A DNA stretch of 64,000 nucleotides, from the NCBI GenBank assembly GCA_943348755.1, contig CALQYS010000001.1, positions 1,467-65,466 on the forward strand, written 5' to 3'. Below the pieces are notes generated by a model that was given only the letters and a program-made list of their open reading frames with translations, was not told the DNA's origin and ran no database searches. Position 1 is the first letter of the stretch. Each line of letters begins with the position of its first letter. A program made the position numbers and the translations under genes. This document shows, one piece after another, positions 4,246 to 36,544 of this stretch. This stretch comes from Candidatus Nomurabacteria bacterium. Its GTDB lineage: Bacteria > Patescibacteriota > Minisyncoccia > Phycocordibacterales > UBA9973.

Positions 4246-6024
4246 ATGAATTCAGAAAAGAAGTGTTGTCAAAACTGTAAAAAGGACTTCACGATAGAAA
4301 TTGAAGATTTTTCATTTTATGTAAAAATGAAGGTACCACCTCCGACTTTTTGTCCCGAGTGCAGGCTTATTCGGCGACTTGCCTTTCGGGAAGAGCGATC
4401 TTTCTATAAAGATGAATGTGCTAAATGTGGAGAAAAAATTGTCAGTTTATTTGCGCCCGAAACTTCTTTTACTGTTTATTGTTCTTCTTGTTGGTGGAGT
4501 GATAGTTGGGATGGCACAGATTATGGTAAAGATTATGATTTTTCCAAGCCGTTTTTCGAGCAATTGTATGAATTGCAAAAAGTTGTTCCATTGCAAGCAA
4601 CAAATCTAAGAAATTGTACTGATTGTAAGTATTGTCATGGATGTATTCGCTCTAAGAATTGCACTTTTGTCTTTACTAGTCTTCAATCCATTAATTGTTA
4701 CTATTGCGAAACACCAGTTTTTTCTAGAGATTCCTTTGATTCCAATTTTATTATGAATGCTGATCATGTTTATGAAGGTGTTAATATAGGCGGGGTGTAT
4801 AATTCAAAATTCATATATTTTTCAGACGAATGTCTTGATTGCTCCTTCGTTTTTAATTGTCTTGGTTGTTCTGATTGTTTTGGATGTGTAAATTTAAGAA
4901 ATCAAAAATATTGTATTTTTAACCAAAAATACACAAAAGAAGATTACAAGAAGGAGATTCTCAGGTGGGACTTGGGTAGTTATAAAATAATCGAAGAAGC
5001 AAGAAAAAAATTTACAGAACTTTATTATAAAACGCCAAGAAGATTTGCGTTAATTTCACGTTCTAGTGATGTTAGCGGTGATGACATTCAAAATACCAAA
5101 AACTGTAGGGTATGTTTCTCGGCTGTTTATGGTGTAGAAAATTGTAAATTTATTTTTCATGGAGGTCTTTTATTAAAAGATAGCTATGATTTTACTTTAG
5201 GTGGAGATAATTCTGAACTTTTATATGAAGTCAGCGGGAGTACCCAATCACAACGAATTCTTTTTACCCGTGGAAGCAATGAAGCCATCGATGTTGAATA
5301 TTCAGATCAGATTTATGGAGGTTTTAATTTATTTGGTTGCACAAAGTTGAGAACAAAAAAATATTGTATTTTAAATAAACAATACACCAAAGAAGAATAT
5401 GAAAAACTAATTCCCAAAATAAAAAAACACATGAATGATATGCCATATATAGATAGCAACGGAAGGATATATAAATATGGAGAATTCTGCCCGCCTGAGC
5501 ATTCTTTGTGGGCATACAATGAATCATGGGCACATCAATATTTTCCCATCAAAAAAGAAGAAGCTATAAAACAAGGATATAAATGGCGCGATTCTATAGA
5601 AAGAGATTACAAAGTAAGCATTAAATCAGGAGATCTACCCGATCATATTAAAGATGTTTTGGACTCTATTTTAGATGAAGTGATAGAATGTGAACATGAC
5701 GGTAGTGATTGTAACCAGCAGTGTACTGCGGCATTTAGAATTTTACCAAACGAGTTGCAATTTTATAGACAAATGAATTTGGCTTTACCCAGATTGTGTC
5801 CAAATTGTCGTCATTATGAACGTTTAAAGAAGGCTAATCCACCCAAACTTTGGCATAGAAAATGCATGTGCGGGGGTGTGGGATCAGAGAATAAAGAATA
5901 TGAAAATACAGCTAGACATTTTCATGCTACAGATCCTTGCCCAAACGAATTTGAGACTGCGATAAGTGACTCGAGGGAAGAAATAGTGTATTGTGAGAAG
6001 TGTTACCAAAGCGAATTTATATGA
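4246..6024 (+). CDS. Cys-rich zinc-ribbon repeat protein, family member A (592 aa, ~45 Cys)
   Basis: N-terminal CxxC-x24-CxxC and a second CxxC..CxxC; central repeats rich in CxxC; duplicated KYCI[FL]NKQYTKEEY motif; C-terminal LPRLCPNCR...LWHRKCMC...YCEKCYQSEFI; paralogous to six other ORFs in the window. Confidence 0.7.
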   Translation: MNSEKKCCQNCKKDFTIEIEDFSFYVKMKVPPPTFCPECRLIRRLAFREERSFYKDECAKCGEKIVSLFAPETSFTVYCSSCWWSDSWDGTDYGKDYDFSKPFFEQLYELQKVVPLQATNLRNCTDCKYCHGCIRSKNCTFVFTSLQSINCYYCETPVFSRDSFDSNFIMNADHVYEGVNIGGVYNSKFIYFSDECLDCSFVFNCLGCSDCFGCVNLRNQKYCIFNQKYTKEDYKKEILRWDLGSYKIIEEARKKFTELYYKTPRRFALISRSSDVSGDDIQNTKNCRVCFSAVYGVENCKFIFHGGLLLKDSYDFTLGGDNSELLYEVSGSTQSQRILFTRGSNEAIDVEYSDQIYGGFNLFGCTKLRTKKYCILNKQYTKEEYEKLIPKIKKHMNDMPYIDSNGRIYKYGEFCPPEHSLWAYNESWAHQYFPIKKEEAIKQGYKWRDSIERDYKVSIKSGDLPDHIKDVLDSILDEVIECEHDGSDCNQQCTAAFRILPNELQFYRQMNLALPRLCPNCRHYERLKKANPPKLWHRKCMCGGVGSENKEYENTARHFHATDPCPNEFETAISDSREEIVYCEKCYQSEFI

Positions 6025-17103: not shown

Positions 17104-17730
17104 ATGAGTGAAGAACCTGCCCGCAATGCTTCGCATAACGATGCAGGCGGGGAAAATAAAAAAGACCCAGAAAATACTTTAGATAATTCTGAAGTTGTTG
17201 AAATGGAATTCAACGAAGATGGCGAGGAGGATCTAAAGAAAACTTTAAAGAAACTTCGAGCCGATTTGAAGGAAGCTAAGGCTCAAAAGGAAGAATATTT
17301 GACTGGCTGGCAGAAAGAGCGGGCGGAGTTTGCTAACTATAAAAAGGGGGAAGACGACCGCAAGGCGATGTTCTCGGAATCAGTGCGTGAGAGGATACTT
17401 GCTCGTTTTTTGACCGTTATCGATAGTTTCAACATGGCTTTTGCTAATAAGGAAGCATGGGAAAAGGTAGATGCAAACTGGAGACAGGGGGTGGAATATA
17501 TTTATGGACAGATGAACACTATATTTGAAGAATATGGGGTAAAGCCAGTGGGAATTGTGGGAGAGACTTTCGATCCGAACATCCACCAGCCGATCGAGAT
17601 GGTTTCGACAGACCAAAAAGAGCAAGACCACAAAGTTTCCGTTGTCATCCAAAAGGGCTACAAGTTGGGCGGCAGAGTGATGCGTCCAGCCAGGGTGAAT
17701 GTTTATGAGTACAAAGAAAGAGTTGAGTAA
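17104..17730 (+). CDS. grpE: Nucleotide exchange factor GrpE
   Basis: Acidic N-terminus, coiled-coil, C-terminal GrpE fold motifs (RFLTVIDSF...GVKPVGIVGETFDPNIHQPIEMV). Confidence 0.85.
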   Translation: MSEEPARNASHNDAGGENKKDPENTLDNSEVVEMEFNEDGEEDLKKTLKKLRADLKEAKAQKEEYLTGWQKERAEFANYKKGEDDRKAMFSESVRERILARFLTVIDSFNMAFANKEAWEKVDANWRQGVEYIYGQMNTIFEEYGVKPVGIVGETFDPNIHQPIEMVSTDQKEQDHKVSVVIQKGYKLGGRVMRPARVNVYEYKERVE

Positions 17731-19372
17731 AATTTGTACCGATTGTAAGGAAGAATTCATAATAAATTCTGGTGATTTAGATTTATACAAAAAAGTTGGG
17801 CTAGAGTTGCCGACTTCTTGTTTTCTTTGTCGAATAAAGCACTTATTTTCTTTTTGGACTTTTGGAAAATTTCGCAAAGGCAAGTCTGATCTCTCGGGGG
17901 AAAGTTTAATCACCGTCTTGCCGAAAAAGAGCCGATATCCTATTTATAAACTCTCCGAGTGGCATAGCGACAAATGGGATGCCATGGATTATGGAGCAGA
18001 TTACGATCCCAAAAAGTTATTTTTTGAACAATTTAAAAATCTTCAGGAAAAAGTACCCAGGCCGCATCAAAATGGCACTAAAAATACTGGTTGTGATTGG
18101 TCTGAGGATGTCTGGAGTTCCAAGAACTGCTATCTGTCACGTTCAATGTTGAACTGTGAAGATTTATTTTATTCATATAGAAATTTGAATGTAAAAAATT
18201 CTATTGATGTAGTAATTTGTTTTGATTGTGAAAAATGTTACAGCTCTGGAGAATGCCATAATTCATATAGACTTTTCTATTCAAGGCATTCTCGCGATTG
18301 TATAGATTCATATTTCCTTTACGACTGCCGCAATTGCCAGAATTGTTTCATGTCATGGAATCTTCGCAATAAATCTTATTGCATAGAAAATGTTCAGTAT
18401 TCCAAGGAAGCTTATGAGGAAAAATTGAAGTCTTTTAATCTGGGCTCTTATGAATCTGTCCAATCTTTAAAACGCCGTTTTGAACTTTTGGCGGGGGAGG
18501 AAGCAGTACATAGAGAGAATTTTAATTTGAATGCATCTAATTCGAGTGGCAATTATCTAATAGATGTTAAAAATTGCCAAAATTGCAATACTATATCGGA
18601 GTCTGAAGATTCTGCAAACTGTGTTCGTAATCTCGGATTGAAATCCAGCATCGATATTGTCGGTTCTCAGCATCCGGAATTATCAGGTAATTGTTGTTTT
18701 TGTCAGGGCAAAATATATTCTCTCAAATACTCTTTTGGGTCCACTTCTCGCTATTCCGAATATCTAGACTTATGCATAGAATGCGAATATTGCTTCGGCT
18801 GTGTTGGTCTCAAAAAGAAAAAATATTGCATTTTGAATAAACAATATACCGAAGACGAATACGAGGCGCTGAAAAATAAAATTATTGCGGAGATGAAGAA
18901 TAGGGGAGAATACGGTAAATTTTTGCCTTATTCCATGAGCGCCGGACCCTTCAATTTCTCTAACGGATTCTTTTATTTTCCGGAGACAAAAAAAGAAGAT
19001 ATCTTGAGACTTGGCGGATACTGGGAAGACATAGACGAAACTCACATAGAAGGCACTGCCACAAGTGAATTGCCCGATTCCATTTCTGATGTCGAAGATG
19101 ACATCACTACCAAAGCTCTTATCTGTCCTGAAACTGGCTGGCGTTTCAATATATCTCAAAACGAGCTTATTTTTTATAGAGAAAACAATATACCGTTACC
19201 TAGGTATCACTTTGACGTAAGGATAAAAAAGGCTCTAAAATATCTTACTGTTCTTCAATCATATCCATATAAATGTTTTTACTGCCAAAAAGATATAATG
19301 GCTTATTATCCACCAGAGTGGGGTTATAAGAAGATTGCTTGCGAGAATTGTTACAAACAAAATATAGCCTAG
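17699..19372 (+). CDS. Cys-rich zinc-ribbon repeat protein, family member B1 (divergent)
   Basis: CTDCKEEF..YKKVGLELPTSCFLCR N-terminus; W.SDKWD..DYG.DYD..K.FFEQ; duplicated K[SK]YCI.N.QY[ST]KE.YE; overlaps the grpE end by ~30 nt. Confidence 0.65.
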   Translation: MFMSTKKELSKICTDCKEEFIINSGDLDLYKKVGLELPTSCFLCRIKHLFSFWTFGKFRKGKSDLSGESLITVLPKKSRYPIYKLSEWHSDKWDAMDYGADYDPKKLFFEQFKNLQEKVPRPHQNGTKNTGCDWSEDVWSSKNCYLSRSMLNCEDLFYSYRNLNVKNSIDVVICFDCEKCYSSGECHNSYRLFYSRHSRDCIDSYFLYDCRNCQNCFMSWNLRNKSYCIENVQYSKEAYEEKLKSFNLGSYESVQSLKRRFELLAGEEAVHRENFNLNASNSSGNYLIDVKNCQNCNTISESEDSANCVRNLGLKSSIDIVGSQHPELSGNCCFCQGKIYSLKYSFGSTSRYSEYLDLCIECEYCFGCVGLKKKKYCILNKQYTEDEYEALKNKIIAEMKNRGEYGKFLPYSMSAGPFNFSNGFFYFPETKKEDILRLGGYWEDIDETHIEGTATSELPDSISDVEDDITTKALICPETGWRFNISQNELIFYRENNIPLPRYHFDVRIKKALKYLTVLQSYPYKCFYCQKDIMAYYPPEWGYKKIACENCYKQNIA

Positions 19373-19374
19373 AC

Positions 19375-21069
19375 ATGAAACCTGAAACAAAAAATTGTAA
19401 AAATTGCCAAAAAGATTTCGTAATCGAAGCTGAAGATTTTAATTTTTACGAAAAGATAAAAGTTCCACCGCCCACGTGGTGTTTCAAATGCCGACAGCAT
19501 AGACGTTATGCTTGGAGAAATGAGCGGAATCTTTACAGGCGTAATTGTGATCTGTGCGGTAAAAGCACGGTGACTATCTATTCTCCTAATAAGCCTTACA
19601 AAGTCTATTGCCATGAATGTTGGTGGGGAGACGGCTGGGATTTTACTTCATACGGACGGAATTTTGATTTTTCTCGTCCCTTTTTCGAACAATTTGCCGA
19701 ACTTCAGCATGAAGTACCCCGCATGGCGCTTTTAAACAAAAATAGCGTGAACTCAGAATACACAAATCACTCGGCGGACAATAAAAATGTCTATCTGACT
19801 TTTTCCTCTTTTGGTAGTGAGAATGTCATGTACAGTACTTGGGTTTTTTACTCGCGGGATTGTATGGACTGTAGCTTTATTTATGAAAAAGGGGAACGTC
19901 TGTATGAAACCATAGACTCTCGTTCTTGTTATCAGTGCCAGTACAGCCTGTTTTTGAAAGATTGCTCGTCTTGCTACTATTGTTACGATTGTCACGGATG
20001 TAACGAATGTTTTATGTCTTCTAACTTACGCAATAAAAGTTATGTATTTAAAAATAAACAATACACTCGCGACGAGTATCTAAAGAAGATGAAGGAATAT
20101 GAAATGTCCTCTTTTACCGTTCGCCAGGGTCTCGAAAAGGAATTTAAAGATATGCTAGAAAACATTTCTGTGCATCGTTACGTTTTGAGCGAGAGAAATA
20201 TAAACTCTATTGGATCTATGATTTTTGACTGTAAAAATGTGCTTCAGTCTTTTGAGGTGAACAAAGGAGAAGACCTTAAATATTTTTATGGAGGGCTTGA
20301 GGCTAAAAGCTGTATAGATGTGTATCATGCGGGGCTTAATTTGGAGCTTTGTTATGAACTCCATGGATGCACCCGTCTTTCAAACTGTCAATTTTGTCAT
20401 CTTTGTTATGATAATATGAACGTGATGTATTCTGATACTTGTCAGAATAGCCAGAATCTTTTTGGCTGCGTCTCTGTGAAAAAGGGGGAGTATATGATTT
20501 TTAATAAAAAATATTCTAAAGCTGATTATGAAGCTCTTAAAGAAAAGATTGTCGAGCATATGAAGCAGACAGGGGAGTACGGTGAATTTTTCCCGCCACA
20601 GATTGCCCCAGTGTATTATAATGAGACACAAGGGAACTTGTATATGCCGATGACCAAAGAGGAAGTACTAGCTAAGGGTTGGCATTGGGAAGATAATATC
20701 CTGGGAACTTTCGGCAAGGAAACTATTTCTAGTTCATCTATTCCAGACAAGATAGAAGATGTGCCAGATTCCTACCTCAATGAAATCTTTGCCTGCGCAG
20801 ACTGTTCAAAAAATTATAACATAACTAGAAACGAGCTACTTTTCTATCAAAAAGAGAATCTTCCATTTCCCAGAAAGTGTCCGAATTGCCGTTACAAGAG
20901 AAGGTTTGATCTGCGTCCAAAGAGAGAGCTCTGGCATCGCACTTGCATGTGCGATAAAAAGCACAAGAACCACGATGGGTCTTGTAAGGTCGAGTTTGAG
21001 ACATGTTATGCTCCCAACCGCACAGAAAAGATATACTGTGAGAAATGTTACCAGCAAGAAGTGTACTAA
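19375..21069 (+). CDS. Cys-rich zinc-ribbon repeat protein, family member B2
   Basis: MKPETKNCKNCQKDFVIEAEDFNFYEKIKVPPPTWCFKCR...; C-terminal CPNCRYKRR..LWHRTCMC..IYCEKCYQQEVY; 2-nt gap to B1. Confidence 0.7.
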   Translation: MKPETKNCKNCQKDFVIEAEDFNFYEKIKVPPPTWCFKCRQHRRYAWRNERNLYRRNCDLCGKSTVTIYSPNKPYKVYCHECWWGDGWDFTSYGRNFDFSRPFFEQFAELQHEVPRMALLNKNSVNSEYTNHSADNKNVYLTFSSFGSENVMYSTWVFYSRDCMDCSFIYEKGERLYETIDSRSCYQCQYSLFLKDCSSCYYCYDCHGCNECFMSSNLRNKSYVFKNKQYTRDEYLKKMKEYEMSSFTVRQGLEKEFKDMLENISVHRYVLSERNINSIGSMIFDCKNVLQSFEVNKGEDLKYFYGGLEAKSCIDVYHAGLNLELCYELHGCTRLSNCQFCHLCYDNMNVMYSDTCQNSQNLFGCVSVKKGEYMIFNKKYSKADYEALKEKIVEHMKQTGEYGEFFPPQIAPVYYNETQGNLYMPMTKEEVLAKGWHWEDNILGTFGKETISSSSIPDKIEDVPDSYLNEIFACADCSKNYNITRNELLFYQKENLPFPRKCPNCRYKRRFDLRPKRELWHRTCMCDKKHKNHDGSCKVEFETCYAPNRTEKIYCEKCYQQEVY

Positions 21070-21071
21070 AT

Positions 21072-22778
21072 ATGAAACCAAAAACAAAAAATTGTAAAAA
21101 TTGTAAAAAAGACTTCGTGATCGAAACTGAAGATTTTGATTTTTACGAAAAAATAAAAGTACCGCCGCCGACTTTTTGTCCAGAATGCCGAAGAGTTCGT
21201 CGTTTTGCGCAGACGAATGAAACTGTGCTTTACAAGCGCAAGTGTGACTTATCTGGTAAAGATATTTTCAGCATGTATCCGTCCGATGCGCCATTTCCAG
21301 TTTATGAAACCGACGTTTGGTACTCAGATCAGTGGGATCCTTATCAATACGGTCTAGATTTCGATGAAAATAGGCCATTTTTTGATCAATTTTTTGAACT
21401 TCAGAATAAGGTCCCGCGAATGTCTCTAGTGCGACAAGGCTTGGCGGTCAACAGTCCTTATGCTCATAGAGTCACGGACCCAAAAAATTCATATATGACT
21501 TTCCGGGCCTCCTATCCAGAAAATTGTTTGTTTGTTTACAACAGCAATTATTCTAAAGATTGCACTGACTCCAACTGGATTTTTAATTCAGAGCTGTGTT
21601 ATGAATGCGTAAATGTGCAAAATTGCTACAATGTGAAGTTTAGTCAAGAAGTCAAAGATTGTCGGGACTCCTCTTTTTTATACGCTTGTCGAAATTGTTC
21701 TGATTGTACCGCTTGCGTGAATTTGGTAAACCAAAAATACTGCATTTTTAATGAGCGTTATTCAAAAGAGGAATATTTTAAAAAATTGGCAGAATTAAGA
21801 ATAAATAGTCACTCGGGGATCTCCGAAATGGCAGAGAAATTAAATGTGTTTCGGAAGAAATTCCCACAGCGGGCGATCGTTTCAGTAAAATCAGAAGATG
21901 TCTCAGGCAACTGGTTTGCTGGATGTAAAAATGTGCATCAATCCTTTGACTGCATCAATGTCAAAGACGGCAAACATCTTTTCATGGTTTTTTCCGCTGA
22001 AGACTGCATGGATTATTATGAATGGGGCAATAAAGCGGAACAAATTTACGAATCAGTGAATTGTGGTCTGAACATCGCCCGGCTTTATTTTTGCAACCAG
22101 TGCTGGATGGGTGCGACTGACTTGTATTATTGTAATACCTGTCCCGGTGCTCGGAATTGTTTTGGGTGCGTAGGATTAAAGAAGGGGGAGTATTCGATAC
22201 TAAACAAAAAATATTCTAAAGAAGAATATGAGATTTTAAAAGAAAAAATAATAAAACAAATGCAAGAAATGCCATTTAAAGACAAAAGAGGCATAAGTTA
22301 TTCTTTTGGGGAATTTTTCCCCGAAATGTTTTCTGATTTTGCTTACAACGAGACTATTGCCAACGTCTTCTTTCCACTATCCAAAGATGAAGCTTTGTCT
22401 CGTGGCTATAAATGGAAGGATAAAGAGAAGAAGAATTACCAAGCCACTCTGAAGCCGAGCGATTTGCCGGAAACTATCGGGGAAGTGAAAGACTCCATTT
22501 TAAATGAAGTTATCGAATGTGAAGAAAAGGATGATCCAAATTCGGTCGGGGCTTTTCGAATCACTCAGAACGAATTAAATTTTTATCGGAAGATCGATTC
22601 GCCCTTGCCAAGAGCTTGCTTTGACATTCGCCATTTGCGTAGGATGAACAAACGTCCGAAACTTAAATTTCTCCGACGAAATTGTTCTAAATGCAGCTCA
22701 GAAGTAGAAACTATTTATGATAAAGATTACGCGCCGATAATTTATTGCGAGAAGTGTTATCAGCAAGAGGTATATTAA
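21072..22778 (+). CDS. Cys-rich zinc-ribbon repeat protein, family member B3
   Basis: MKPKTKNCKNCKKDFVIETEDFDFYEKIKVPPPTFCPECR...; C-terminal IIYCEKCYQQEVY; 2-nt gap to B2. Confidence 0.7.
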   Translation: MKPKTKNCKNCKKDFVIETEDFDFYEKIKVPPPTFCPECRRVRRFAQTNETVLYKRKCDLSGKDIFSMYPSDAPFPVYETDVWYSDQWDPYQYGLDFDENRPFFDQFFELQNKVPRMSLVRQGLAVNSPYAHRVTDPKNSYMTFRASYPENCLFVYNSNYSKDCTDSNWIFNSELCYECVNVQNCYNVKFSQEVKDCRDSSFLYACRNCSDCTACVNLVNQKYCIFNERYSKEEYFKKLAELRINSHSGISEMAEKLNVFRKKFPQRAIVSVKSEDVSGNWFAGCKNVHQSFDCINVKDGKHLFMVFSAEDCMDYYEWGNKAEQIYESVNCGLNIARLYFCNQCWMGATDLYYCNTCPGARNCFGCVGLKKGEYSILNKKYSKEEYEILKEKIIKQMQEMPFKDKRGISYSFGEFFPEMFSDFAYNETIANVFFPLSKDEALSRGYKWKDKEKKNYQATLKPSDLPETIGEVKDSILNEVIECEEKDDPNSVGAFRITQNELNFYRKIDSPLPRACFDIRHLRRMNKRPKLKFLRRNCSKCSSEVETIYDKDYAPIIYCEKCYQQEVY

Positions 22779-23526: not shown

Positions 23527-25428
23527 ATGAGTAAAATAATAGGTATAGATTTGGGTACAACAAATTCAGCGGTCGCATTTATCGAAGGAGGTGCGCCGAA
23601 GATTATTGAAAATATTGAGGGCAATCGCACGACTCCCTCTGTCGTGGCGACCGCGAAAAATGGTGATCGCATTGTCGGCCTTCTTGCTAAAAGACAGGCA
23701 ATCACGAATCCAGAGAATACGATTGCAGAAATTAAGCGCTTCATGGGGCACCGCTTTGATGACCCAGAAGTGCAGAAAGATAAAACGACATCATCGTTTA
23801 AGATTGAACAAGCAGATGGCGGCGGAGTGAAAGTAAAAATGCTGGATAAGTTTTATCGACCAGAGGAAGTGTCTGCGATGATCTTGCAAAAGATAAAGGC
23901 GGACGTGGAAGCTAAGCTCGGAGAAAAAATTACGGAAGCAGTTATCACTGTGCCTGCGTACTTTAACGACGCGCAAAGAAAGGCGACAAAGGATGCGGGA
24001 GCTATTGCGGGCCTCGATGTAAAGAGAATCATCAACGAGCCGACAGCGGCAGCACTCGCTTATGGTTTCGATAAAAAGAAAAATGAAAAAATAGTAGTCT
24101 ATGACTTTGGTGGGGGTACTTTCGACGTGTCTGTGCTCGAGATCGGTGGAGATGTGATCGAAGTGAAGTCTATCGATGGGGACAGTCACCTGGGTGGAGG
24201 CGACATTGACCGCTTGATCGTCAAATGGATCGCGGAGCAATACAAAAAAGAAGCTGGCATAGATGTGACGAAGGATCCTCTAGCTCATCAGAGGCTTCGT
24301 GAGGCGGCAGAAAAGGCCAAGCACGAACTTTCTACGACTATGGAGACGGAAATAAACATTCCATTCATTACTTCCGATGCCACTGGTCCGAAGCACCTTC
24401 TTATGAAGATGTCGCGCGCGACACTTGAGACCTTAACCAAAGATTTGATTGATCGTTCTATCGAGATCACAAAAAGGGCCCTCAATGCTTCTCCATTTAA
24501 AATGAATGAGATCAATGAAGTTATCATGGTGGGCGGACAGACAAGAATGCCACGAATCGTCGCTGCTGTTAAAGAACTTTTCGGCAAGGAGCCAAACATG
24601 TCTATCAATCCTGACGAAGTGGTGGCGCTTGGTGCAGCGGTGCAGGCCGGTGTGCTCGCTGGTGATGTGCGCGATGTTCTCTTGCTCGACGTTATCCCTC
24701 TATCTCTTGGCATTGAAACTCTTGGAGGAGTGGCGACAAAGTTAATCGAAAGAAATACAACTATCCCTTCTTCTAAATCACAAGTCTTTTCTACTGCAGC
24801 GGATAATCAAACTTCCGTGGAGATACATATAGTGCAAGGTGAGCGCCCAATGGCTTCGGACAATCGCTCTCTCGGACGATTTATCTTAGACGGAGTACCA
24901 CCAGCACCTCGCGGTATGCCCCAGATCGAAGTTTCATTCGATGTGGATGCGAACGGTATCTTAAATGTTGCAGCGAAAGATAAGGCTTCTGGCAAGAGTC
25001 AGTCTATCAAGATAGAAGCAAGTTCTGGACTCAAAGATGAAGATATAAAAAAGATGCAACAGGATGCAGAGCTTCATGCGACGGAAGATAAAAAGAAAAA
25101 AGAAGTGATTGATCTCAAAAATACTGCAGAGATGATCATCTACACTGCGGAGAAAGCTGTAAAAGATAATGGTGACAAAATTGATGCCAGTTTGAAGGAT
25201 ACTGTAAACGCGAAAATCACTACACTTCGAGGTTTGAAAGACGGCACTGATGGCGACGCGATCAAGAAGGCGACAGAAGAGCTTTCTGCCGAAATGTCTA
25301 AAATAGGGGAAGCGATGGCGAAGGCTGGTAAGGCTGGACCTGCCGGCGGAGCCCCAGAAGAACAGCCAGCGGAAGTAAAGGATGCGGAGTTTAAGGAGGG
25401 GAAGAAGGATGAAGGCGAGAAGAAATAA
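23527..25428 (+). CDS. dnaK: Molecular chaperone DnaK (Hsp70)
   Basis: [30 protein letters not shown] motifs; acidic/Gly-rich C-terminal tail. Confidence 0.97.
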
Positions 25429-26465: not shown

Positions 26466-26502
26466 TGCCCGTCCCAGCTTCAGCTCGGCGGGCAAAAATT
26501 TT
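26466..26502. terminator. Hairpin TGCCCG...CGGGCA followed by A5T4 (bidirectional terminator-like)
   Basis: Inverted repeat at 26466-26494 flanked by A-run and T-run. Confidence 0.4.
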
Positions 26503-26531
26503 GCCTATTTTTAATAATTCTCTGGTATAAT
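26501..26531 (+). promoter_or_regulatory. Promoter TTGCCT-N19-TATAAT positioned 6 nt before the ATG of the 67-aa Cys-rich ORF (leaderless)
   Basis: -35 at 26501-26506, -10 at 26526-26531, ATG at 26538. Confidence 0.4.
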
Positions 26532-26537
26532 TTAAAT

Positions 26538-26741
26538 ATGCCTTTCAATATAGCCAAACATCTGTCGTCTAAGCATTGCAGTAAGTGCCATGGAGAAGGC
26601 GATGGATTTAAGTGTCCGAAATGTGGATACACTACAGCTGCGTATAATCCCCTGCATTTTAATGAATGTAAAGATAAATGTATGGTCCAGGTGAAATGCA
26701 AAAAATGTTCCGAAGCGGAAAGTAATTGCAAGTGCGTATAA
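26538..26741 (+). CDS. Small Cys-rich protein (67 aa, 12 Cys; CxxC...CxxC zinc-ribbon-like)
   Basis: HCSKCHGEGDGFKCPKCGY...CKDKCMVQVKCKKCSEAESNCKCV; dedicated promoter and two downstream hairpin terminators. Confidence 0.5.
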   Translation: MPFNIAKHLSSKHCSKCHGEGDGFKCPKCGYTTAAYNPLHFNECKDKCMVQVKCKKCSEAESNCKCV

Positions 26742-26750
26742 AAAAGAAAA

Positions 26751-26806
26751 CAAGGGACAAGTTTGGTCCAAGTCCCTTGTGGGGTAGCAAGAGCTACCCA
26801 GATTTT
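26751..26806. terminator. Two tandem hairpins (CAAGGGAC...GTCCCTTG and GGGTAGC-AAGA-GCTACCC plus TTTT) acting as terminators for both strands
   Basis: The second hairpin is followed by AGATTTT on the plus strand; on the minus strand the first hairpin is followed by TTTTCTTTTTT (end of the tRNA-like gene). Confidence 0.6.
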
Positions 26807-26889
26807 GGAGTGTCCGACGGGAATTGAACCCGCTTCTCTCAGTGTGCACGATCTTGAGTGCTTTGCCCTATAAGCTACGGAACACATCC
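26806..26889 (-). tRNA. tRNA-like gene with a canonical T-arm (GGGTTCAATTCCC), D-loop GG and encoded CCA, but an oversized 11-13 nt anticodon loop; identity undetermined
   Basis: Reverse complement reads ...TAGCTTATAGGGCAAAGC (4-bp D-stem)...CTCA-AGATCGTGCACAC-TGAG...GCGGGTTCAATTCCCGTCGGACACTCCA; acceptor pairs only if one U is bulged; no normal 7-nt anticodon loop can be drawn. Confidence 0.4.
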
Positions 26890-26993
26890 CGTGAAAGATC
26901 AAGCTTTTATGCTTACTAGAATTATATCACAAGAAATAAAAATTAATATAAAGTCTTGTTAGCAAAAAGTTGATTATATTGTATAATAACGAG

Positions 26994-29078
26994 ATGGAAT
27001 TGCCGGAAATACCTATAAATAAAGAGATAACATATCTTGGTATCACTACTTATCGGGACAAGAATCAGCTTTTTGGCATCAAGCGCAAGGATAGGCGCCA
27101 GCATGTTTATCTTCTTGGTAAATCCGGTACTGGTAAATCCGTGCTGATGTTCAACATGATCATCCAGAACATCAAGAATGGTGATGGAGTTTGTATGGTT
27201 GACCCGCACGGGGAAAATGTCGAAGCAGTTCTCTCCGCTATCCCTCCGCATCGCATCAAAGATGTCGTTTATTTTAATCCAGCTGACGCTGATCATCACA
27301 TCGGGTTCAACGTTCTTGAACTTATTGATCCGCAATACAAGCATTTGGTGGCTTCGGGGCTCATGGGTATTTTCACGAAGATCTGGGCGAATGCGTGGAG
27401 CGCCCGCATGGAATATATTTTGAATAATGCTATCTTGGCCCTACTCGATACTCCGGGTACGACTTTACTTGGAATTCCACGTATGCTTGTCGATAAGGAT
27501 TACCGCCAAAAAATAATTTCAAATTTAAAAGACCCGGTTATCAAGGCTTTTTGGGTCCACGAATACGAAGCTTGGCAAGATAAATTTAGAAATGAAGCGA
27601 TCGCTCCGATTCAAAACAAAGTCGGCCAGTTTTTATCTACTTCTATCATCCGCAATGTCGTCGGCCAGTCCAAAAGTACGATAAATATTTTTGACATGAT
27701 GAATGATGGCAAGATTTTCTTGGTGAACGTTTCCAAAGGGCGTATTGGTGAAGACAACTCTGGTCTCTTGGGGGGCATGATCATCACTAAAATCCAGCTA
27801 GCGGCCATGGAACGCGTGCGTATCCCCGAGGAATCCCGTAAAGACTTCTATCTCTTTGTAGACGAATTCCAAAACTTCGTCACCGATGCTTTCGCCGGTA
27901 TTTTATCTGAGGCTCGAAAATATAGACTGAATCTGACAGTGGCGCACCAATATACTGCCCAATTAGTCGTGGATAAAAGTTCTGCGGTGCGTGATGCGGT
28001 CTTCGGCAACGTGGGCACGACCATAGTCTTTAGAGTTGGTGCCGATGATGCAGAATTTTTAGAGAGTGAATTTGAGCCGGAATTTACCCCTCAAGATATA
28101 GTGAATTTGCCAAACTATAAGATTTATTTGAAATTAATGATCGACGGGGTCACTTCTCGTCCCTTTTCTGCTAAAACCTTGCCACCTCTTGTGAAAACTG
28201 GTGATAAAAAGATTGAAGAAGAAGTAATTAGATCTTCACGTGCTCTGTATTGTAGAAGCAAAGAAGTTGTAGAGAAAGAAATTAACGATTGGAGTGGGAT
28301 GTCGCTTGGCAATGAGTCTGATACTGGAAACAGCGTTTTAGAAAAATTCCCCGCAATTTGTTCATTTTGTAAAAAAGAAACGACCGTGCCCTTCAAGCCG
28401 GATCCAGGCCGAGCAGTATATTGTAAAGAATGTATTGCAAAGATAAAGTCTGGTGAGGTAAAAGTAGAAAAAAGTTCAGAAAATCAGATCAGACATGATG
28501 AAACCACCTTCTTCAGACCATTGGCTGATTTAGGTATAGAATTTAAACAAAATAATGGAACAAATGGAAACGGTGAGAGATATCCGCAAAGGGTGGACCA
28601 TCACATGGATAAACCTCATCCTGGGATGAAGAAATTTGTCCCTACAGCAACCAAGCCGGCGCCATTTTCGGCCAAGCCAGGGATTATCGGGGCTATTAAA
28701 AAAGTTTTCGTTAAAAGTGGGGTTTCAGCACCAGCCAAGGCTCCTGTTCCCAAAAAGCCAGCTAAAGATAATACTGAACTCAGAGAATTTTTAAATAAGA
28801 CACTAGCCGCAAACGCTCCCACCTCGACTCCGATTAGTAAGAGCGTCGTGAGTCCGGTAGTTAAAAATACTGGACCAGCGCCGGTTTCCTTAGACACTCT
28901 CAAAAACCCTGTGAAGCAGGCGGATAAAATAAACACATCTCCTAAGGATCGTGCTGCTAGTCCGGAAGATATGAATAAGTTGAAAGATTTAATCTCGTCC
29001 GCCTCTACTACAGGCTCCGGCGAGACAAAGAAGGTGAAAGAAGTGCCTGAAGACGTTCTGCGGAAAATTTTAGAATAA
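26994..29078 (+). CDS. FtsK/HerA-superfamily P-loop ATPase (DUF87/HerA- or TraD-like) with C-terminal ClpX-like C4 zinc finger and K/P/A-rich tail (ATPase 1)
   Basis: FGIKRKDRRQHVYLLGKSGTGKS (Walker A), VDPHGE, DFYLFVDEFQNF (Walker B), LNLTVAHQY; C-terminal CSFCKKETTVPFKPDPGRAVYCKECIAK; leaderless from TGTATAAT at 26980-26987. Confidence 0.75.
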   Translation: MELPEIPINKEITYLGITTYRDKNQLFGIKRKDRRQHVYLLGKSGTGKSVLMFNMIIQNIKNGDGVCMVDPHGENVEAVLSAIPPHRIKDVVYFNPADADHHIGFNVLELIDPQYKHLVASGLMGIFTKIWANAWSARMEYILNNAILALLDTPGTTLLGIPRMLVDKDYRQKIISNLKDPVIKAFWVHEYEAWQDKFRNEAIAPIQNKVGQFLSTSIIRNVVGQSKSTINIFDMMNDGKIFLVNVSKGRIGEDNSGLLGGMIITKIQLAAMERVRIPEESRKDFYLFVDEFQNFVTDAFAGILSEARKYRLNLTVAHQYTAQLVVDKSSAVRDAVFGNVGTTIVFRVGADDAEFLESEFEPEFTPQDIVNLPNYKIYLKLMIDGVTSRPFSAKTLPPLVKTGDKKIEEEVIRSSRALYCRSKEVVEKEINDWSGMSLGNESDTGNSVLEKFPAICSFCKKETTVPFKPDPGRAVYCKECIAKIKSGEVKVEKSSENQIRHDETTFFRPLADLGIEFKQNNGTNGNGERYPQRVDHHMDKPHPGMKKFVPTATKPAPFSAKPGIIGAIKKVFVKSGVSAPAKAPVPKKPAKDNTELREFLNKTLAANAPTSTPISKSVVSPVVKNTGPAPVSLDTLKNPVKQADKINTSPKDRAASPEDMNKLKDLISSASTTGSGETKKVKEVPEDVLRKILE

Positions 29079-29079: not shown

Positions 29080-30741
29080 ATGAATCAAGAATGTAAAAAG
29101 TGCAAACAAAATTTCACCTTAGATAAAGATGATCTGTCTTTTTATGAAAAGATGAAAGTGCCGACACCCAAAGTCTGTCCAGACTGCCGTTTCAAAATGC
29201 GCGCGATGTTTCGCAATGAAACCACTCTTTACTCTGGGCGCAAATGCGCGCTTTGCGGTAAGGCACTGATTTCAATGTATAATCCGAAATCCCCATATAT
29301 TATTTACTGTCCAGACTGTTTTTATTCTGAAAAATGGGAGCCAAGAGACTATGCAAGAGACTATGATTTTAACAGGCCATTTTTAGAGCAAATGAAAGAA
29401 TTTCTACTGTCAGTTCCGAAAATAAGTCTATTCCTTAATTTTTCTGATGGCAAAAACGTGAATAGCGAATATTCGAATATGGCTGGAGGTCTCAAAAATT
29501 GTTATCTGGTTTTCAACACCAGTCCTGCGGAAGACTTGATGTATTCTAGGGGTATCCGGCATGGTAATGATTCATCGGATATATATTTTGGCACCAGTTT
29601 CGAGAGATGCTATGAGTGTGTGAATGTTCAACAATCTGCTGATATCCTATATGGTAAGAATATTACTGGAGGGGTGGATTGTGCTTTTGTTTCAAACTGT
29701 CGGGGGCTTACAAATTGCTTTGGCTGTGTAAATCTAAATAACAAGTCCCATTATTTCCTCAATGAGCCCATGGATGTAAAGGAATACAAAAAAAAGGTTT
29801 ACGAAATATTAGGCAGTTATAAAAAAACAGAAGAATTTAAAAAAGAATTTGGAAAATTTACACTTGGTTTCCCGGTACGAGAAAATAATAACATAAAAAA
29901 TGTTAATTCAACCGGAGATTATTTGTTTGAATGTAAAAATGTTCACGATTCCTTTGAGGCTGCCGGCGCAGAAGATTCCAAGTACCTGTTTTCTTCTAAA
30001 GGAGTTAAAGATTCCTTAGGCATTATCGGTTATGGCACACAATCAGAAAAATTACTCGAGGTTGTGGCTACAGGATATTCCAGCAACATAGTGGGTACGT
30101 ATGCCGCTGATAATTGCCGTGATATCTTGTATGGATTTTACGTCAAGAATTGTAAAGATTGTGTTGCTTGCGACGCTCTCAAAAACGGTAAATACTCAGT
30201 TTTTAATAAAGAATATTCCAAAGAAGAATATGAAAAAATTCGCGAACATATAATCAATGAGCTAAAAGAGAAGGATCTACATGGTCTTATGATGCCGCAA
30301 GAACTTGCCCCCTTTGCTTATAATGAAACAGTTGCACAGGAAAATTTTCCACTTACCAAAGAGGAAATATTGTCGCAGGGTTTCCGCTTCGAGGATGACA
30401 TACAAAAGACAGAAGGCAAAGAGACCATACAACCTCAGGATATTCCTGATCATATAAAAGATGTGTCAGATTCCATCACTACTGAGATTCTAGCTTGCAT
30501 AAATTGCAATCGTAATTATAAAATCACAGAGCAAGAGCTTTTATTTTACAAGAAAATGAATCTTTCGATACCAAGGAAGTGTTTCTATTGCCGACATCAA
30601 GATCGCATCATTCGTCGAGGGCCATATAAATTCTGGGATAGAAATTGCGCTAAATGTGGAAAGGGGATTACGACCAACTATGCCCCCGATCGGCCGGAAA
30701 TAGTGTATTGTGAAAAGTGTTATCAGCAAGAAGTGTATTAA
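29080..30741 (+). CDS. Cys-rich zinc-ribbon repeat protein, family member C1
   Basis: MNQECKKCKQNF..FYEKMKVPTPKVCPDCR; C-terminal CFYCRHQDRIIRRGPYKFWDRNCAKC...YAPDRPEIVYCEKCYQQEVY; starts 1 nt after the ATPase 1 stop. Confidence 0.7.
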   Translation: MNQECKKCKQNFTLDKDDLSFYEKMKVPTPKVCPDCRFKMRAMFRNETTLYSGRKCALCGKALISMYNPKSPYIIYCPDCFYSEKWEPRDYARDYDFNRPFLEQMKEFLLSVPKISLFLNFSDGKNVNSEYSNMAGGLKNCYLVFNTSPAEDLMYSRGIRHGNDSSDIYFGTSFERCYECVNVQQSADILYGKNITGGVDCAFVSNCRGLTNCFGCVNLNNKSHYFLNEPMDVKEYKKKVYEILGSYKKTEEFKKEFGKFTLGFPVRENNNIKNVNSTGDYLFECKNVHDSFEAAGAEDSKYLFSSKGVKDSLGIIGYGTQSEKLLEVVATGYSSNIVGTYAADNCRDILYGFYVKNCKDCVACDALKNGKYSVFNKEYSKEEYEKIREHIINELKEKDLHGLMMPQELAPFAYNETVAQENFPLTKEEILSQGFRFEDDIQKTEGKETIQPQDIPDHIKDVSDSITTEILACINCNRNYKITEQELLFYKKMNLSIPRKCFYCRHQDRIIRRGPYKFWDRNCAKCGKGITTNYAPDRPEIVYCEKCYQQEVY

Positions 30742-32526: not shown

Positions 32527-34269
32527 ATGCACCAAGAAGAAACGAAAAATTGTCAAAATTGTAAGAAAAATTTCGTAATCGAATCGGAAGATTTTAATTT
32601 TTATGAAAAGATAAAAGTTCCGGCACCGACTTGGTGTCCGGAATGTCGAGCCATGCGCAGATTGATCTGGCGCAACGAACGTTCTCTCTATCACAACACC
32701 TGTGCTTTTTCTGGCAAAAATCTTATATCCATGTTTTCTCCGGAAACTAAATTAGTGATGTACGATCATGACATTTGGTGGAGCGATAAATGGGATCCGC
32801 TTACTTATGGACAGGATTATGATTTTTCTAGGCCATTTTTCGAACAATACAAAGAATTGTTGCAACGAGTACCACTTATGAATTTGGGCAATATAAATTG
32901 CTTACAAGGCGAATATGGCAATCACAATACTGATTGCAAAAAATTTTACTTAGCCTATGCATGTTATGGAAGTGAAAATATTTCTTATAGCCAAGGAACG
33001 GTGGGTGTGAAAGACTCTATAGATCTTTATACCGTAATGAAGTCAGAAAAGTGTTATGAAAATGTAACATGCACTGGCCTTTATCAAACCCATTTCAGCT
33101 ATGACAGTGATGATTCCATCGACTCTGCTTTTTTGACTTGTTGCATAAACTTACAAAATTGTTTGGGTTGCATCAATCTTCGCCATAAAAGCTATTGTAT
33201 TTTCAATAAGCAATATTCGAAGGCTGATTATGAAAATGAACGAGCCAAATATGATTTTGGAAGTTATCAGGCTTTAGAAAATTTCAAAGAAAAATATAAT
33301 GATTTTATTAAAACCGAACCTAGGCGATTTGCTAGTATTTTAAAGTCTACAAATGTAACTGGTGACAATATTATAAATTCAAAAAATAGTAAAAATATTT
33401 TTGATGTTTATGGTGATGTTGAGGATTCAAAATATGTAGCTCATGTGATGGATCTGAAAGATAGTTATGATTTATATGGTGGGGGAATTGCCTCTCTTTT
33501 ATATGAAGGTGTTGACGAAGGCGTCGATGCTTTTAAGCAGTTTTTTGGTCTCCTTACCCACAGCTGTCTCGAAACTAACTATACTTATATGTGTTACGGC
33601 TCCGAATACTTGTTCGGCTGCATTGGGCTTAGAAACCAAAATCACTGTATTTTGAATAAAAAGTATTCTAAAGAGGAATACGAAAAACTAATGCCGAAAA
33701 TGATTGAACACATGAATACCGTGCCTTACGTCGACAGTCTCGGCAGAATTTACCGATATGGAGAATTTTTCCCCACTGATTTATCTCCGTTTGCTTATAA
33801 CGAAACAATTGCGGGTGAGTATTATACTTTAAACAAGAAAGAGGCGAAAGGTTATGGTTTCAAATGGAAAGAGAAAGAGGAAAGGGATTACAAAATAGAA
33901 ATTAAAACTGAAAATCTGCCAGACCATATCAAAGAAGTTGATGAAAGTATTATTGGTAAAATTATCGGCTGTTTACATAAGGGCGAATGCGAAGAGCAGT
34001 GTACTGAGGCATTTAAAATATTGGATTCAGAGTTCCAATTTTATAAAAAAAATAATTTTGCGCTTCCAAGGCTCTGCCCAAATTGCCGTCACTTTCAGAG
34101 ATTAAAAAAGAGGAATCCGATAAAGCTTTGGCATAGGTCTTGTATGTGCGAAAAGCAAGGACATTTTCATGGTCAGGAAAAGTGCGAAGTGCAATTCGAA
34201 ACTAGCTACGCGCCAGACCGTCCGGAAATAATATATTGCGAGAAATGTTATCAGCAGGAAGTGTATTAG
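32527..34269 (+). CDS. Cys-rich zinc-ribbon repeat protein, family member C3
   Basis: MHQEETKNCQNCKKNFVIESEDFNFYEKIKVPAPTWCPECR (5' ~80 nt nearly identical to C2); C-terminal IIYCEKCYQQEVY; an alternative upstream start exists at 32500. Confidence 0.7.
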   Translation: MHQEETKNCQNCKKNFVIESEDFNFYEKIKVPAPTWCPECRAMRRLIWRNERSLYHNTCAFSGKNLISMFSPETKLVMYDHDIWWSDKWDPLTYGQDYDFSRPFFEQYKELLQRVPLMNLGNINCLQGEYGNHNTDCKKFYLAYACYGSENISYSQGTVGVKDSIDLYTVMKSEKCYENVTCTGLYQTHFSYDSDDSIDSAFLTCCINLQNCLGCINLRHKSYCIFNKQYSKADYENERAKYDFGSYQALENFKEKYNDFIKTEPRRFASILKSTNVTGDNIINSKNSKNIFDVYGDVEDSKYVAHVMDLKDSYDLYGGGIASLLYEGVDEGVDAFKQFFGLLTHSCLETNYTYMCYGSEYLFGCIGLRNQNHCILNKKYSKEEYEKLMPKMIEHMNTVPYVDSLGRIYRYGEFFPTDLSPFAYNETIAGEYYTLNKKEAKGYGFKWKEKEERDYKIEIKTENLPDHIKEVDESIIGKIIGCLHKGECEEQCTEAFKILDSEFQFYKKNNFALPRLCPNCRHFQRLKKRNPIKLWHRSCMCEKQGHFHGQEKCEVQFETSYAPDRPEIIYCEKCYQQEVY

Positions 34270-35041: not shown

Positions 35042-36544
35042 ATGCCCAAGCCTAATCGAGTGCAAATAATCAAATACGGACCGCCGCCGCCAGAATTGCC
35101 CGTCTTTGGCAAGGTAAAACCAGAAGAGGTTTCTTTCATTGGGCGTACCAACTATGTGGCTTCTCTTGAGGAGAAGAAATTTATTTTCGGTATTAAACGT
35201 GTAGATCGTAGGCGTCACCTTTACATCATTGGCAAGTCCGGGGTGGGAAAAACGAAACTACTTGAACTGATGCTTCGCCAAGACGTGGCTTATGGTCACG
35301 GACTCTGCTTGATTGATCCGCATGGAGATGTGATCGATGCGATGCTAGATTATATACCAAAAGAAAGAATCGAAGATGTTTGCATCATAGACCCTACCGA
35401 CATTAACTTTCCTTCCTCTTTTAATCCACTTGCAAATGTGGACCCGATGTTCAAGTTTCAGTTGACCCAAGGCCTTATCGAAGTTTTCCAGAAGCAATTC
35501 GGCGCCAACTGGACGCCTCGCTTGGAGCACGTTTTTCGTTTTACTTGTTTGGCGCTGCTCGACTATCCGCATGCGACGATGCGTGGGATGATCTCGATGC
35601 TGACAGATAGAAATTATAGACAGAAAGTGGTGGAATATATAACAGATGACATGGTGAAAAGATTCTTCGCTATTGAATTTGCCGACTGGTCCGAAAAGTT
35701 CGATACTGATGCCATCATTCCACTGGTGAACAAACTCGGACAGTTCTTGTCCGACCCCTTACTCCGTAACATTTTCGGTCAGAAGCAGAACAAAATAGAC
35801 ATCAGTAAACTTATGAACGAACAGAAGATAATTTTGATCAACCTTTCGAAGGGTCGTCTCGGGGAAGAAAATTCTTCTTTCTTGGGTTCTATATTCTTAA
35901 CCAAAATAAAACAAGCAGGGATGGAACGTGCCGCTATACCTGAGAAAGATCGGTTAGACTTTTACCTATATGTAGATGAGTTTCAGAACGTTGTTACGCA
36001 GACTTTCGAGAACATCCTTTCAGAAGCCAGAAAATATGCCTTGAATTTGACTATCGCGCATCAGTATGTCGGTCAGATTATTCCCAGGGTTCATCAAGCG
36101 GTGCTAGGTAATTGCGGTAGTGTTATCACCTTTCGTGTTGGTGGTGAAGATGCAGTTAAAATGAAACCAGAGTTCGCCCCTCTTTTCGATGTAAAAGACA
36201 TGATAAATCTTGCAGTCGGGGAAATATATGTAAAAATGACCATTGATGGCGAGTCTTATGACCCCTTTTCAGCTGAAACTCTCCGGGTTCTTCCTCCGAC
36301 TCATCCATCATATAGAGAAGAAATCATTGATTCTTCTCGTCGAAAATATTCTATACCAAAGGACGATGCGGCGAAACTGATTGCTGCAGAAGAGGCGACC
36401 ATTATCCGCAGTGCGGAAGAAAAGGCTATTATTGAGGGAAAAACAAAGAAGAGAGACCAAGAGGAAAACGAATCTGATGATCAAGAAGATGGGGAAGAAA
36501 AACCAAAAGCAAAAACTTCACAAGAAGCTGAGCCTATGATTTAG
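35042..36544 (+). CDS. FtsK/HerA-superfamily P-loop ATPase (DUF87/HerA- or TraD-like), paralog of ATPase 1, acidic C-terminal tail (ATPase 2)
   Basis: FGIKRVDRRRHLYIIGKSGVGKT, IDPHGD, DFYLYVDEFQNV, LNLTIAHQY; promoter TTGAGT-N17-TAAAAT upstream. Confidence 0.75.
   Translation: MPKPNRVQIIKYGPPPPELPVFGKVKPEEVSFIGRTNYVASLEEKKFIFGIKRVDRRRHLYIIGKSGVGKTKLLELMLRQDVAYGHGLCLIDPHGDVIDAMLDYIPKERIEDVCIIDPTDINFPSSFNPLANVDPMFKFQLTQGLIEVFQKQFGANWTPRLEHVFRFTCLALLDYPHATMRGMISMLTDRNYRQKVVEYITDDMVKRFFAIEFADWSEKFDTDAIIPLVNKLGQFLSDPLLRNIFGQKQNKIDISKLMNEQKIILINLSKGRLGEENSSFLGSIFLTKIKQAGMERAAIPEKDRLDFYLYVDEFQNVVTQTFENILSEARKYALNLTIAHQYVGQIIPRVHQAVLGNCGSVITFRVGGEDAVKMKPEFAPLFDVKDMINLAVGEIYVKMTIDGESYDPFSAETLRVLPPTHPSYREEIIDSSRRKYSIPKDDAAKLIAAEEATIIRSAEEKAIIEGKTKKRDQEENESDDQEDGEEKPKAKTSQEAEPMI

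Follow-up and report, generated by a model that had tools for sequence, protein, structure and literature searches.

We analyzed a conserved P-loop ATPase, here called ATPase 1, that is encoded in a 64,000-nucleotide stretch of contig CALQYS010000001.1 from a Candidatus Nomurabacteria bacterium (hereafter, the window, meaning this whole stretch), and focused on its C-terminal extension (28330-29078). Our analyses suggest, with a probability of roughly one half, that this extension serves as a recruitment arm through which ATPase 1 acquires a substrate or partner. The arm comprises a zinc finger, a box of ~37 amino acids (aa), a variable linker with conserved islands, and an end peptide, and it would deliver the recruited molecule to the motor, presumably a hexamer. 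The reading is drawn by analogy with type IV coupling proteins (T4CPs), the group to which the motor is related: in conjugative coupling proteins, C-terminal extensions dock relaxosome or adaptor proteins. A preliminary description of the same DNA had called the finger ClpX-like and the tail beyond it histone-H1-like; based on the results below, neither label should be propagated. Coordinates of the features are collected in Table 1, and residues of ATPase 1 are numbered on the 694-aa form that starts at ATG 26994. The mechanical open reading frame (ORF), 26970-29078, opens with TTG at 26970, and the orthologues and the database copy use the ATG at 26994.

The finger is almost certainly a canonical member of the CxxC-x17-CxxC family, judging from its sequence. 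It reads CSFCKKETTVPFKPDPGRAVYCKEC at 28359-28433 (aa 456-480), an exact CxxC-x17-CxxC with all four Cys ligand positions, and it is separated from the motor by an 18-residue variable linker; four of the six Cys of ATPase 1 (0.9% of the protein) lie within these 25 residues. The Pfam family PF23477 ("probable treble clef zinc finger") scored 43.5 bits on the full protein and 50.4 bits on the isolated finger (cut-off 27), and the NCBIfam family TIGR04272 ("CxxC-x17-CxxC domain") scored 46.5 bits against a cut-off of 36. On the question, raised in the preliminary description, of whether orthologous ATPases retain the finger, the answer is uniform: every one of the 200 orthologues examined has it (120/120 database homologues, 80/80 species loci), with the x17 spacing throughout, so the motif is not a chance occurrence. 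The signature VPF.P...R.VYC..C is likewise invariant in both sets, and at the surface, the residues that separate the ligands (VPFKP, GR, K) are no less invariant than the cysteines. The finger family is already named, and the public annotation of the orthologues is already "CxxC-x17-CxxC domain-containing protein"; what appears to be undescribed so far is the conserved architecture and neighbourhood, not the finger itself.

A structural model of the finger is consistent with this assignment. In an AlphaFold2 (AF2) model, the predicted topology is strand, CxxC knuckle, strand, and a second CxxC where a helix starts (predicted local distance difference test [pLDDT] 65-73), as would be expected for a treble clef, which is a very broad class. 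The model of full-length ATPase 1 is poor (mean pLDDT 46), probably owing to a shallow alignment at ~80% identity, and only the finger's secondary structure is taken as moderately confident. With the family, the ATPase 1 finger thus shares the x17 spacing, the VPF.P...RPVYC..C signature, and the predicted knuckle-hairpin-helix, and it differs in being a single copy fused C-terminally to a P-loop motor. A sequence search of the PDB with the finger (E≤10) returned only non-significant LIM and C1-type fingers. LIM fingers are the best solved-structure sequence matches both for the ATPase 1 finger (E 1.6) and for a C-terminal finger of the Cys-rich proteins described below (E 0.011), and they have in common the pattern CxxC-x17-CxxC with (I/V)YC..C; however, LIM is a double finger and the matches are non-significant, so no homology can be claimed.

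To gauge the breadth of the family, we searched 1.84 billion proteins with a profile built from the ATPase finger. At E≤1e-3, it matched 4,252 cluster representatives, and the ten representatives that were scanned are PF23477 proteins. The best matches listed are either orthologues or fragments of ATPase 1, or proteins of 75-340 aa that carry two to six fingers joined by Arg/Gly-rich, RGG-like linkers. These small proteins, for example from Thermoplasmatota, carry no annotation beyond "CxxC-x17-CxxC domain-containing protein." Some ATPase 1-like C-terminal fragments of other lineages (P0280, P0292) have two CxxC-x17-CxxC fingers, not one. Two Methanosarcina mazei members of the family bind zinc by inductively coupled plasma mass spectrometry, and the family is without known function (PMC12704099); that zinc-binding study is the only experimental literature on the family that we found. 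Literature searches with the names PF23477, PF13451, TIGR04272, and zf_Tbcl found nothing, and we found no description of a finger-bearing ATPase, of the ATPase pairing, or of the Cys-rich arrays.

The likeness to the ClpX zinc-binding domain (ZBD) holds only in part. Like the ClpX ZBD, which falls in the broad treble-clef fold class, the ATPase 1 finger is a C4 zinc-finger module with a predicted treble-clef-type topology on a ring ATPase, and the two have similar local strings, CSFC(G/K)K and VY(I)C.EC. The finger could not be placed in the ClpX family. The Pfam zf-C4_ClpX model (PF06689; 39 positions, gathering score 27 bits) gave 14.7 bits on ATPase 1, from only the eight residues CSFCKKET at profile positions 2-9, compared with 78 bits over positions 2-39 for the N-terminus of Escherichia coli ClpX as a positive control. 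The control has x18 spacing, as opposed to x17 in the window and in the 200 orthologues, and the "F" of CSFC, the source of the ClpX resemblance, is mostly L in the orthologues. The ClpX ZBD is N-terminal on an AAA+ protein, whereas the finger is C-terminal on a T4CP-type (FtsK/HerA-class) ATPase, in which neither Pfam nor NCBIfam finds an AAA+ or ClpX domain. With the threshold set as loosely as E≤10, the PDB sequence search still listed no chain of ClpX; E. coli ClpX scored 5.0 bits (E 0.16) against a hidden Markov model (HMM) of the ATPase fingers and at noise level against an HMM of the Cys-rich fingers. We therefore reject ClpX ZBD membership, based on the partial match, the spacing, the non-conserved F, and the C-terminal site on a non-AAA+ motor.

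The 214-aa tail after the finger had been described as low-complexity, basic, and Pro/Ala-rich, and this is borne out. No other stretch of the window proteins is as rich in K/P/A, with 43% K+P+A in the best 100-aa window of the tail (mean over window proteins 18.6%, standard deviation 4.7, 99th percentile 33%), and aa 488-694 (207 aa) have an isoelectric point (pI) of 9.7 and a net charge of +11. The further comparison with histone H1 does not hold. With the H1 C-terminal domain and bacterial H1-like tails, the ATPase 1 tail shares PAKAP/KKPAK runs, Pro/Ala/Lys enrichment, and a basic pI. However, H1 tails contain tens of percent Lys and few acidic or hydrophobic residues, with much higher Lys and net charge and with repeats that are conserved in composition and not in sequence, whereas the ATPase 1 tail has 13.5-15.7% K and 9-12% D+E and holds conserved acidic and hydrophobic islands. 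The K/P/A runs, including PAKAPVPKKPAKD, fall between the conserved elements and do not align. An H1-like tail is thus rejected by both composition and conservation pattern.

Conservation of the tail was assessed in the 120 homologues (72-100% identical) and the 80 species loci (56-82% identical). The finger, the post-finger box, and the C-terminal peptide are kept even in species that are 56-60% identical. Measured from a point just ahead of the finger, the extension as a whole is between 180 and 387 aa long, depending on the species. Within the linker, the four islands are clear in the 120 close homologues and weaker in the 80 species, where few columns reach 80%; between the islands, the mean top-residue frequency in the 120 homologues is 0.42, with 22% gaps. 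In the AF2 model, the tail has pLDDT ~30, rising to 53-67 at predicted short helices, which coincide with three of the four islands (not GIIGAIKKVF), the PLADL box, and the C-terminal peptide, and nothing is predicted between them. The K/P/A-rich linker is probably disordered, and the tail as a whole looks like a flexible spacer with short linear docking motifs.

By sequence, the motor that carries this arm is an orphan, cytoplasmic, anchor-less relative of type IV coupling proteins. Four Pfam families match ATPase 1 above their cut-offs: TrwB_AAD_bind (40.5 bits; cut-off 20.5), T4SS-DNA_transf (31.3; 20.1), DUF87 (30.5), and TraG-D_C (26.6; 22). The NCBIfam TraD/VirD4 equivalogs all score far under their cut-offs, the top one being SXT_TraD with 47 bits against 366. 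In tblastn searches, ATPase 1 matched plasmid T4CPs at E 1e-59 to 1e-91; an Embleya plasmid encodes a T4CP with 32% identity to the core (E 1e-59), and this T4CP lies in a type IV secretion system (T4SS) cluster with PrgI, a VirB4-like ATPase, a relaxase, and NlpC/P60. The core (aa 1-437) is highly uniform, with a mean top-residue frequency of 0.94 in the 120 homologues. ATPase 1 shares with the coupling proteins a homologous core of nucleotide-binding and all-alpha domains and lacks their N-terminal membrane domain: we found no membrane segment in ATPase 1 (maximum KD19 hydropathy 1.13, and 0.79 in the first 60 aa), and the Walker A motif is already at aa 42. It also differs in sitting at a housekeeping chromosomal locus, paired with a paralogue. 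In F-plasmid TraD, a C-terminal extension with a conserved end peptide has a tail that docks TraM, and ATPase 1 likewise bears an appended C-terminal extension with a conserved end peptide.

No T4SS (virB4) or relaxase gene was found among the 23 Pfam-scanned ORFs of the window plus dnaK, where ~20 ORFs of at least 120 aa are unannotated, or among the called genes of a related locus (L001). An FtsK-like reading is unsupported, with no FtsK_SpoIIIE match in Pfam at E≤1. ATPase 1 is a core chromosomal gene of Paceibacteria (Candidate Phyla Radiation, CPR). At least 568 of the first 600 pattern matches in a species-representative genome collection encode a relative. Patescibacteria have been reported to carry about two VirD4-type homologues per genome, mostly away from virB4 and possibly exapted, with only 148 of 5,713 T4CP homologues near virB4 (PMC12102498).

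Two side observations concern the motor. On a plasmid of the alphaproteobacterium Sulfitobacter (NZ_CP081110.1, 99994-101181; locus L083), a 395-aa anchor-less homologue, flanked by transposase and recombinase genes, is 38% identical to the ATPase 1 core, and soluble orphan T4CP-like ATPases are thus not confined to CPR. The PADLOC profile mad8 (MADS defence system) matches the cores of both ATPases of the window (26994-28304, E 7e-15; 35042-36340, E 1e-10) and fits them better than any Pfam family does, which probably reflects generic P-loop similarity. A defence-system reading finds no support beyond that similarity: this P-loop match is the only one from PADLOC, which returned no match to the Cys-rich proteins.

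The preliminary description had further proposed that the finger motif echoes the C-termini of neighbouring Cys-rich proteins. The window encodes seven Cys-rich paralogues (553-592 aa, 5-6.6% Cys), which together occupy ~12 kb, or 19% of the window; in databases they are "hypothetical" and essentially without Pfam annotation. They end as had been noted (e.g., CAKCGKGITTNYAPDRPEIVYCEKCYQQEVY), and both ends form a two-finger module, in which a sub-threshold PF13451-like CxxC-x24-CPxC is followed by an x17 finger. In the paralogue C29080, for example, the N- and C-modules each consist of a zf_Tbcl-like finger plus CxxC-x17-CxxC, and the PF13451-then-PF23477 order is also seen in the small proteins P0304 and P0317. 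The N-proximal CxxC-x17-CxxC finger is clear in four of the seven paralogues and degenerate in three.

Profile comparisons show a similarity between these fingers and that of ATPase 1 which is weak but exceeds the noise. When PF23477 was run on isolated Cys-rich fingers, the C-terminal finger of C29080 passed the cut-off with 28.1 bits, and five others (three C-terminal, two N-proximal) scored 9.9-17.5 bits, below the cut-off, with PF23477 among their weak matches. For reciprocal searches of all 389 window ORFs, we then built one HMM on 105 distinct ATPase fingers and a second on 117 fingers taken from the C-termini of C29080 orthologues. The other family was the first non-self match both ways (E ~3e-4; 15.3 and 10.9 bits in one direction, 14.3 bits in the other), with the paralogue C30745 as the top non-self match of the ATPase-finger HMM at 15.3 bits, and unrelated ORFs began at E ~0.3-0.5. 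By hand count, the ATPase finger is identical at 15 of 25 positions to an archaeal/metagenomic family member (P0247), as against 10 of 25 to the C29080 C-terminus. The Cys-rich fingers would thus be divergent copies of the ATPase finger's family, in which the ATPase finger is consensus-like. Since generic family members resemble the ATPase finger more closely than the neighbouring fingers do, the echo, though real, would reflect family membership and not a special relationship; nor is the likeness special to the C-termini, given the N-proximal copies.

In four of the seven Cys-rich proteins, among them C30745, the first knuckle of the C-terminal finger is altered to C-x-C...H-x-H...C (e.g., CMCSQKSHNHKEGRC; 32380-32487, 34160-34266, 20960-21066, 5900-6021), and the 11-residue Cys/His insertion in this knuckle may form an extra metal site. 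An AF2 model of C29080 (pLDDT 82, predicted template modelling score 0.86) is confident in the terminal two-finger modules (82-97) and less so in the centre, which is Cys-rich, strand-poor, and, by sequence, internally duplicated in appearance. A Foldseek search with this model found nothing significant: the top PDB matches (E 1) were left-handed beta-helix enzymes with TM scores ≤0.1, and in BFVD the top match (E 7.8e-3) was a local, non-significant one to phage "zinc-ribbon" proteins. A literature search on Cys-rich or zinc-ribbon proteins of Paceibacteria found nothing relevant.

The second ATPase of the window, ATPase 2, is 45% identical to ATPase 1 over the 436-aa core. As had been described, it lacks both extensions and ends in an acidic tail: the CxxC-x17-CxxC finger is absent from all 58 ATPase 2 orthologues (0/58), and the last 80 aa have a pI of 4.8. 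The orthologues share a C-terminal peptide of their own, (T/S)SQEAEPMI (36500-36541 in the window), unlike the EVPEDVLRKILE of ATPase 1.

Those genes of the window that were annotated have chromosomal housekeeping roles (BipA, a sigma factor, MnmA, AlaRS, aromatic amino-acid genes, and others), and in the window and locus L001 the ATPases have grpE, dnaK, dnaJ, rsmE, and ribosomal and tRNA genes as neighbours. A mobile-element context was rejected for the annotated genes, since they are of this housekeeping kind. From 17104 to 38594, the grpE-dnaK-dnaJ cluster is interleaved with both ATPases, the Cys-rich arrays, and the PaaX-like regulator. Both dnaK and ATPase 1 are present in 54 of the 80 species loci, those of closer relatives, where the order is grpE, zero to four Cys-rich genes, the PaaX-like gene (reverse), dnaK, ATPase 1, zero to five Cys-rich genes, rsmE (reverse, in some), ATPase 2, and dnaJ; the array slot between grpE and the PaaX-like gene is filled in most related species. 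More distant relatives have the order ATPase 2, zero to three Cys-rich genes, ATPase 1, without the chaperone genes. Both ATPases occur in 58 loci, on the same strand in every case, and one to four Cys-rich genes lie between them in 37 of the 58. This association is found in both gene orders, with or without dnaK, which argues against the mere inheritance of one arrangement.

Table 1. Features of the ATPase locus and its surroundings (window positions; strand where reported)
Feature	Position	Strand	Description
ATPase 1	26994..29078	+	Soluble relative of type IV coupling proteins (TraD/VirD4/TrwB), 694 aa
P-loop core, aa 1-437	26994..28304	+	Walker A GKSGTGKS, Walker B FYLFVDEF
CxxC-x17-CxxC zinc-finger domain, aa 451-483	28344..28442	+	PF23477 zf_Tbcl_2 / TIGR04272 (Pfam, NCBIfam)
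Post-finger box, aa 481-517	28434..28544	+	IAKIKSGE...FFxPLADLGIEF; conserved in 120 homologues and 80 species
Variable linker, aa 518-681	28545..29036	+	K/P/A-rich, mildly basic; four islands within
Island, aa 563-572	28680-28709	+	GIIGAIKKVF; conserved among close relatives
Island, aa 596-602	28779-28799	+	LREFLNK; conserved among close relatives
Island, aa 631-637	28884-28904	+	VSLDTLK; conserved among close relatives
Island, aa 651-667	28944-28994	+	KDRAASPEDMNKLKDLI; conserved among close relatives
C-terminal peptide	29037..29075	+	KEVPEDVLRKILE; in 80/80 species loci, conservative changes only
Cys-rich paralogue C29080	29080..30741	+	553 aa; N-module x17 finger 29245-29319, C-module finger 30646-30720
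Cys-rich paralogue C30745	30745..32490	+	581 aa; N-proximal finger 30916-30990
Cys-rich paralogue	32527..34269	+	580 aa from ATG; ORF starts 32500
Second array, three Cys-rich paralogues	17699..22778	+	17699-19372, 19375-21069, 21072-22778; between grpE and PaaX-like gene
Seventh Cys-rich paralogue	4246..6024	+	Away from the ATPases
ATPase 2	35042..36544	+	Paralogue without finger or K/P/A tail; acidic tail ending SQEAEPMI
grpE	17104-17730		Conserved frame around the ATPases (Pfam)
PaaX-like regulator (divergent)	22779-23321	-	Conserved frame around the ATPases (Pfam)
dnaK	23527..25428	+	Part of the conserved frame around the ATPases (Pfam)
dnaJ	37509-38594		Conserved frame around the ATPases (Pfam)

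If the extension is a recruitment arm, the basic finger and the basic linker would most likely contact nucleic acid, and the conserved helices and the C-terminal peptide would most likely dock protein partners, for which ATPase 2 and the Cys-rich proteins are the candidates. This assignment of ligands to the parts of the arm is tentative, more so than the arm itself. The nucleic-acid part is suggested by the recurrent pairing of the finger with basic low-complexity linkers across the family, a pairing that ATPase 1 repeats. Several observations weigh against the recruitment arm in this form. The link to nucleic acid is one of association only; about 13 of the 120 orthologue tails have a pI below 8, so that the tail is not uniformly basic; and the nearest solved-structure matches of the fingers, non-significant as they are, are LIM domains, which are protein-binding modules. 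The low mean pLDDT of the ATPase 1 model leaves the disorder and the helices of the tail weakly supported, and the 21 of 58 loci that have no Cys-rich gene between the ATPases indicate that a partnership with these proteins is not locally obligatory.

The same LIM affinity, weak as it is, would suit a functional analogy with the ClpX ZBD, in which the finger would dimerise atop the hexamer and dock adaptors or substrates, with the Cys-rich proteins as clients through finger-finger hetero-association. The predicted topology fits a treble clef, and the Cys-rich proteins, syntenic within a conserved neighbourhood, have fingers that belong to the same family. We nevertheless consider this unlikely: HMM score, spacing, and position all set the finger apart from the ClpX ZBD, its sequence is closer to that of generic family members than to the neighbours' fingers, it is fully conserved in 20 loci that have no Cys-rich gene within 10 kb, and nothing specific supports ClpX-like docking. 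Conservation also bears on whether the finger is a mere structural zinc staple at the junction of motor and tail, with no ligand of its own. Being small, single-copy, and highly conserved together with the adjacent box, it could be one, but the VPFKP, GR, and K surface is as invariant as the cysteines, and the tandem finger arrays with RGG linkers in other proteins suggest a binding surface, which makes a simple staple improbable.

The chaperone genes around the ATPases raise another explanation, namely that the ATPases and the Cys-rich proteins serve the DnaK/DnaJ/GrpE system as motors for protein remodelling or translocation, with the end peptides (EVPEDVLRKILE and SQEAEPMI) as docking tags for a chaperone or co-chaperone and the finger as a client-binding element. 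It would account for the order grpE-(Cys)-PaaX-dnaK-ATPase 1-(Cys)-ATPase 2-dnaJ in ~54 of the 80 species loci and for each paralogue having its own conserved C-terminal peptide. However, distant species keep ATPase 2-(Cys)-ATPase 1 with no dnaK, dnaJ, or grpE nearby, the sequences have no resemblance to known Hsp70-docking motifs, and operon order is often historical in small CPR genomes; we regard this explanation as very unlikely. Even less probable is that the tail condenses or binds DNA non-specifically in the manner of histone H1. The K/P/A content, which is the highest in the window, the PAKAPVPKKPAKD run, and the pI of 9.7 are what would be expected of such a tail, but the Lys and acidic contents and the net charge of +11 over 207 aa are not, the K/P/A runs lie in parts of variable length while the conserved parts are amphipathic or acidic islands, and some orthologue tails are neutral or acidic. 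Of these explanations, the recruitment arm remains the one that we prefer. A more elaborate reading is doubtful, though it may be worth considering: the two anchor-less T4CP paralogues and the variable double-zinc-module arrays might constitute a Paceibacteria-specific cytoplasmic machine, which would be the exapted T4CP suspected in the literature, with the fingers shared by motor and clients as a recognition code and the end peptides assembling or regulating a hetero-hexamer, possibly coupled to DnaK.

The role of the VirD4-type ATPases of Patescibacteria is an open question in the literature (PMC12102498). For one large lineage, the locus shows that the two ATPases are a fixed pair of anchor-less paralogues, one of which always carries a zinc finger and a motif-studded arm, and that both travel with zinc-module arrays. 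The finger, the C-terminal peptides, and the candidate partners thus offer testable handles on a conserved unknown in very small genomes.

Further observations concern the surroundings of ATPase 1. The spacer between dnaK and ATPase 1 (25429-26993) is 1.5 kb in the window, compared with ~180 bp in the close relative L001, and contains small ORFs only. One of these (26538-26741) encodes a Cys-rich protein of 67 aa with a weak match to the Cas12f TNB zinc finger (E 1.7e-4). On the minus strand just upstream of ATPase 1 (26809-26883), Rfam gives a borderline tRNA match, which scores 31.2 bits where the gathering score is 29 (E 0.015); in the entire window, ARAGORN detects no tRNA. In four distant loci that have no dnaK context (L070, L071, L074, and L080; ~12150-13980), a protein of 460-527 aa with lamin-tail-domain repeats is encoded directly 3' of ATPase 1, and two of the four proteins also have a PKD domain.

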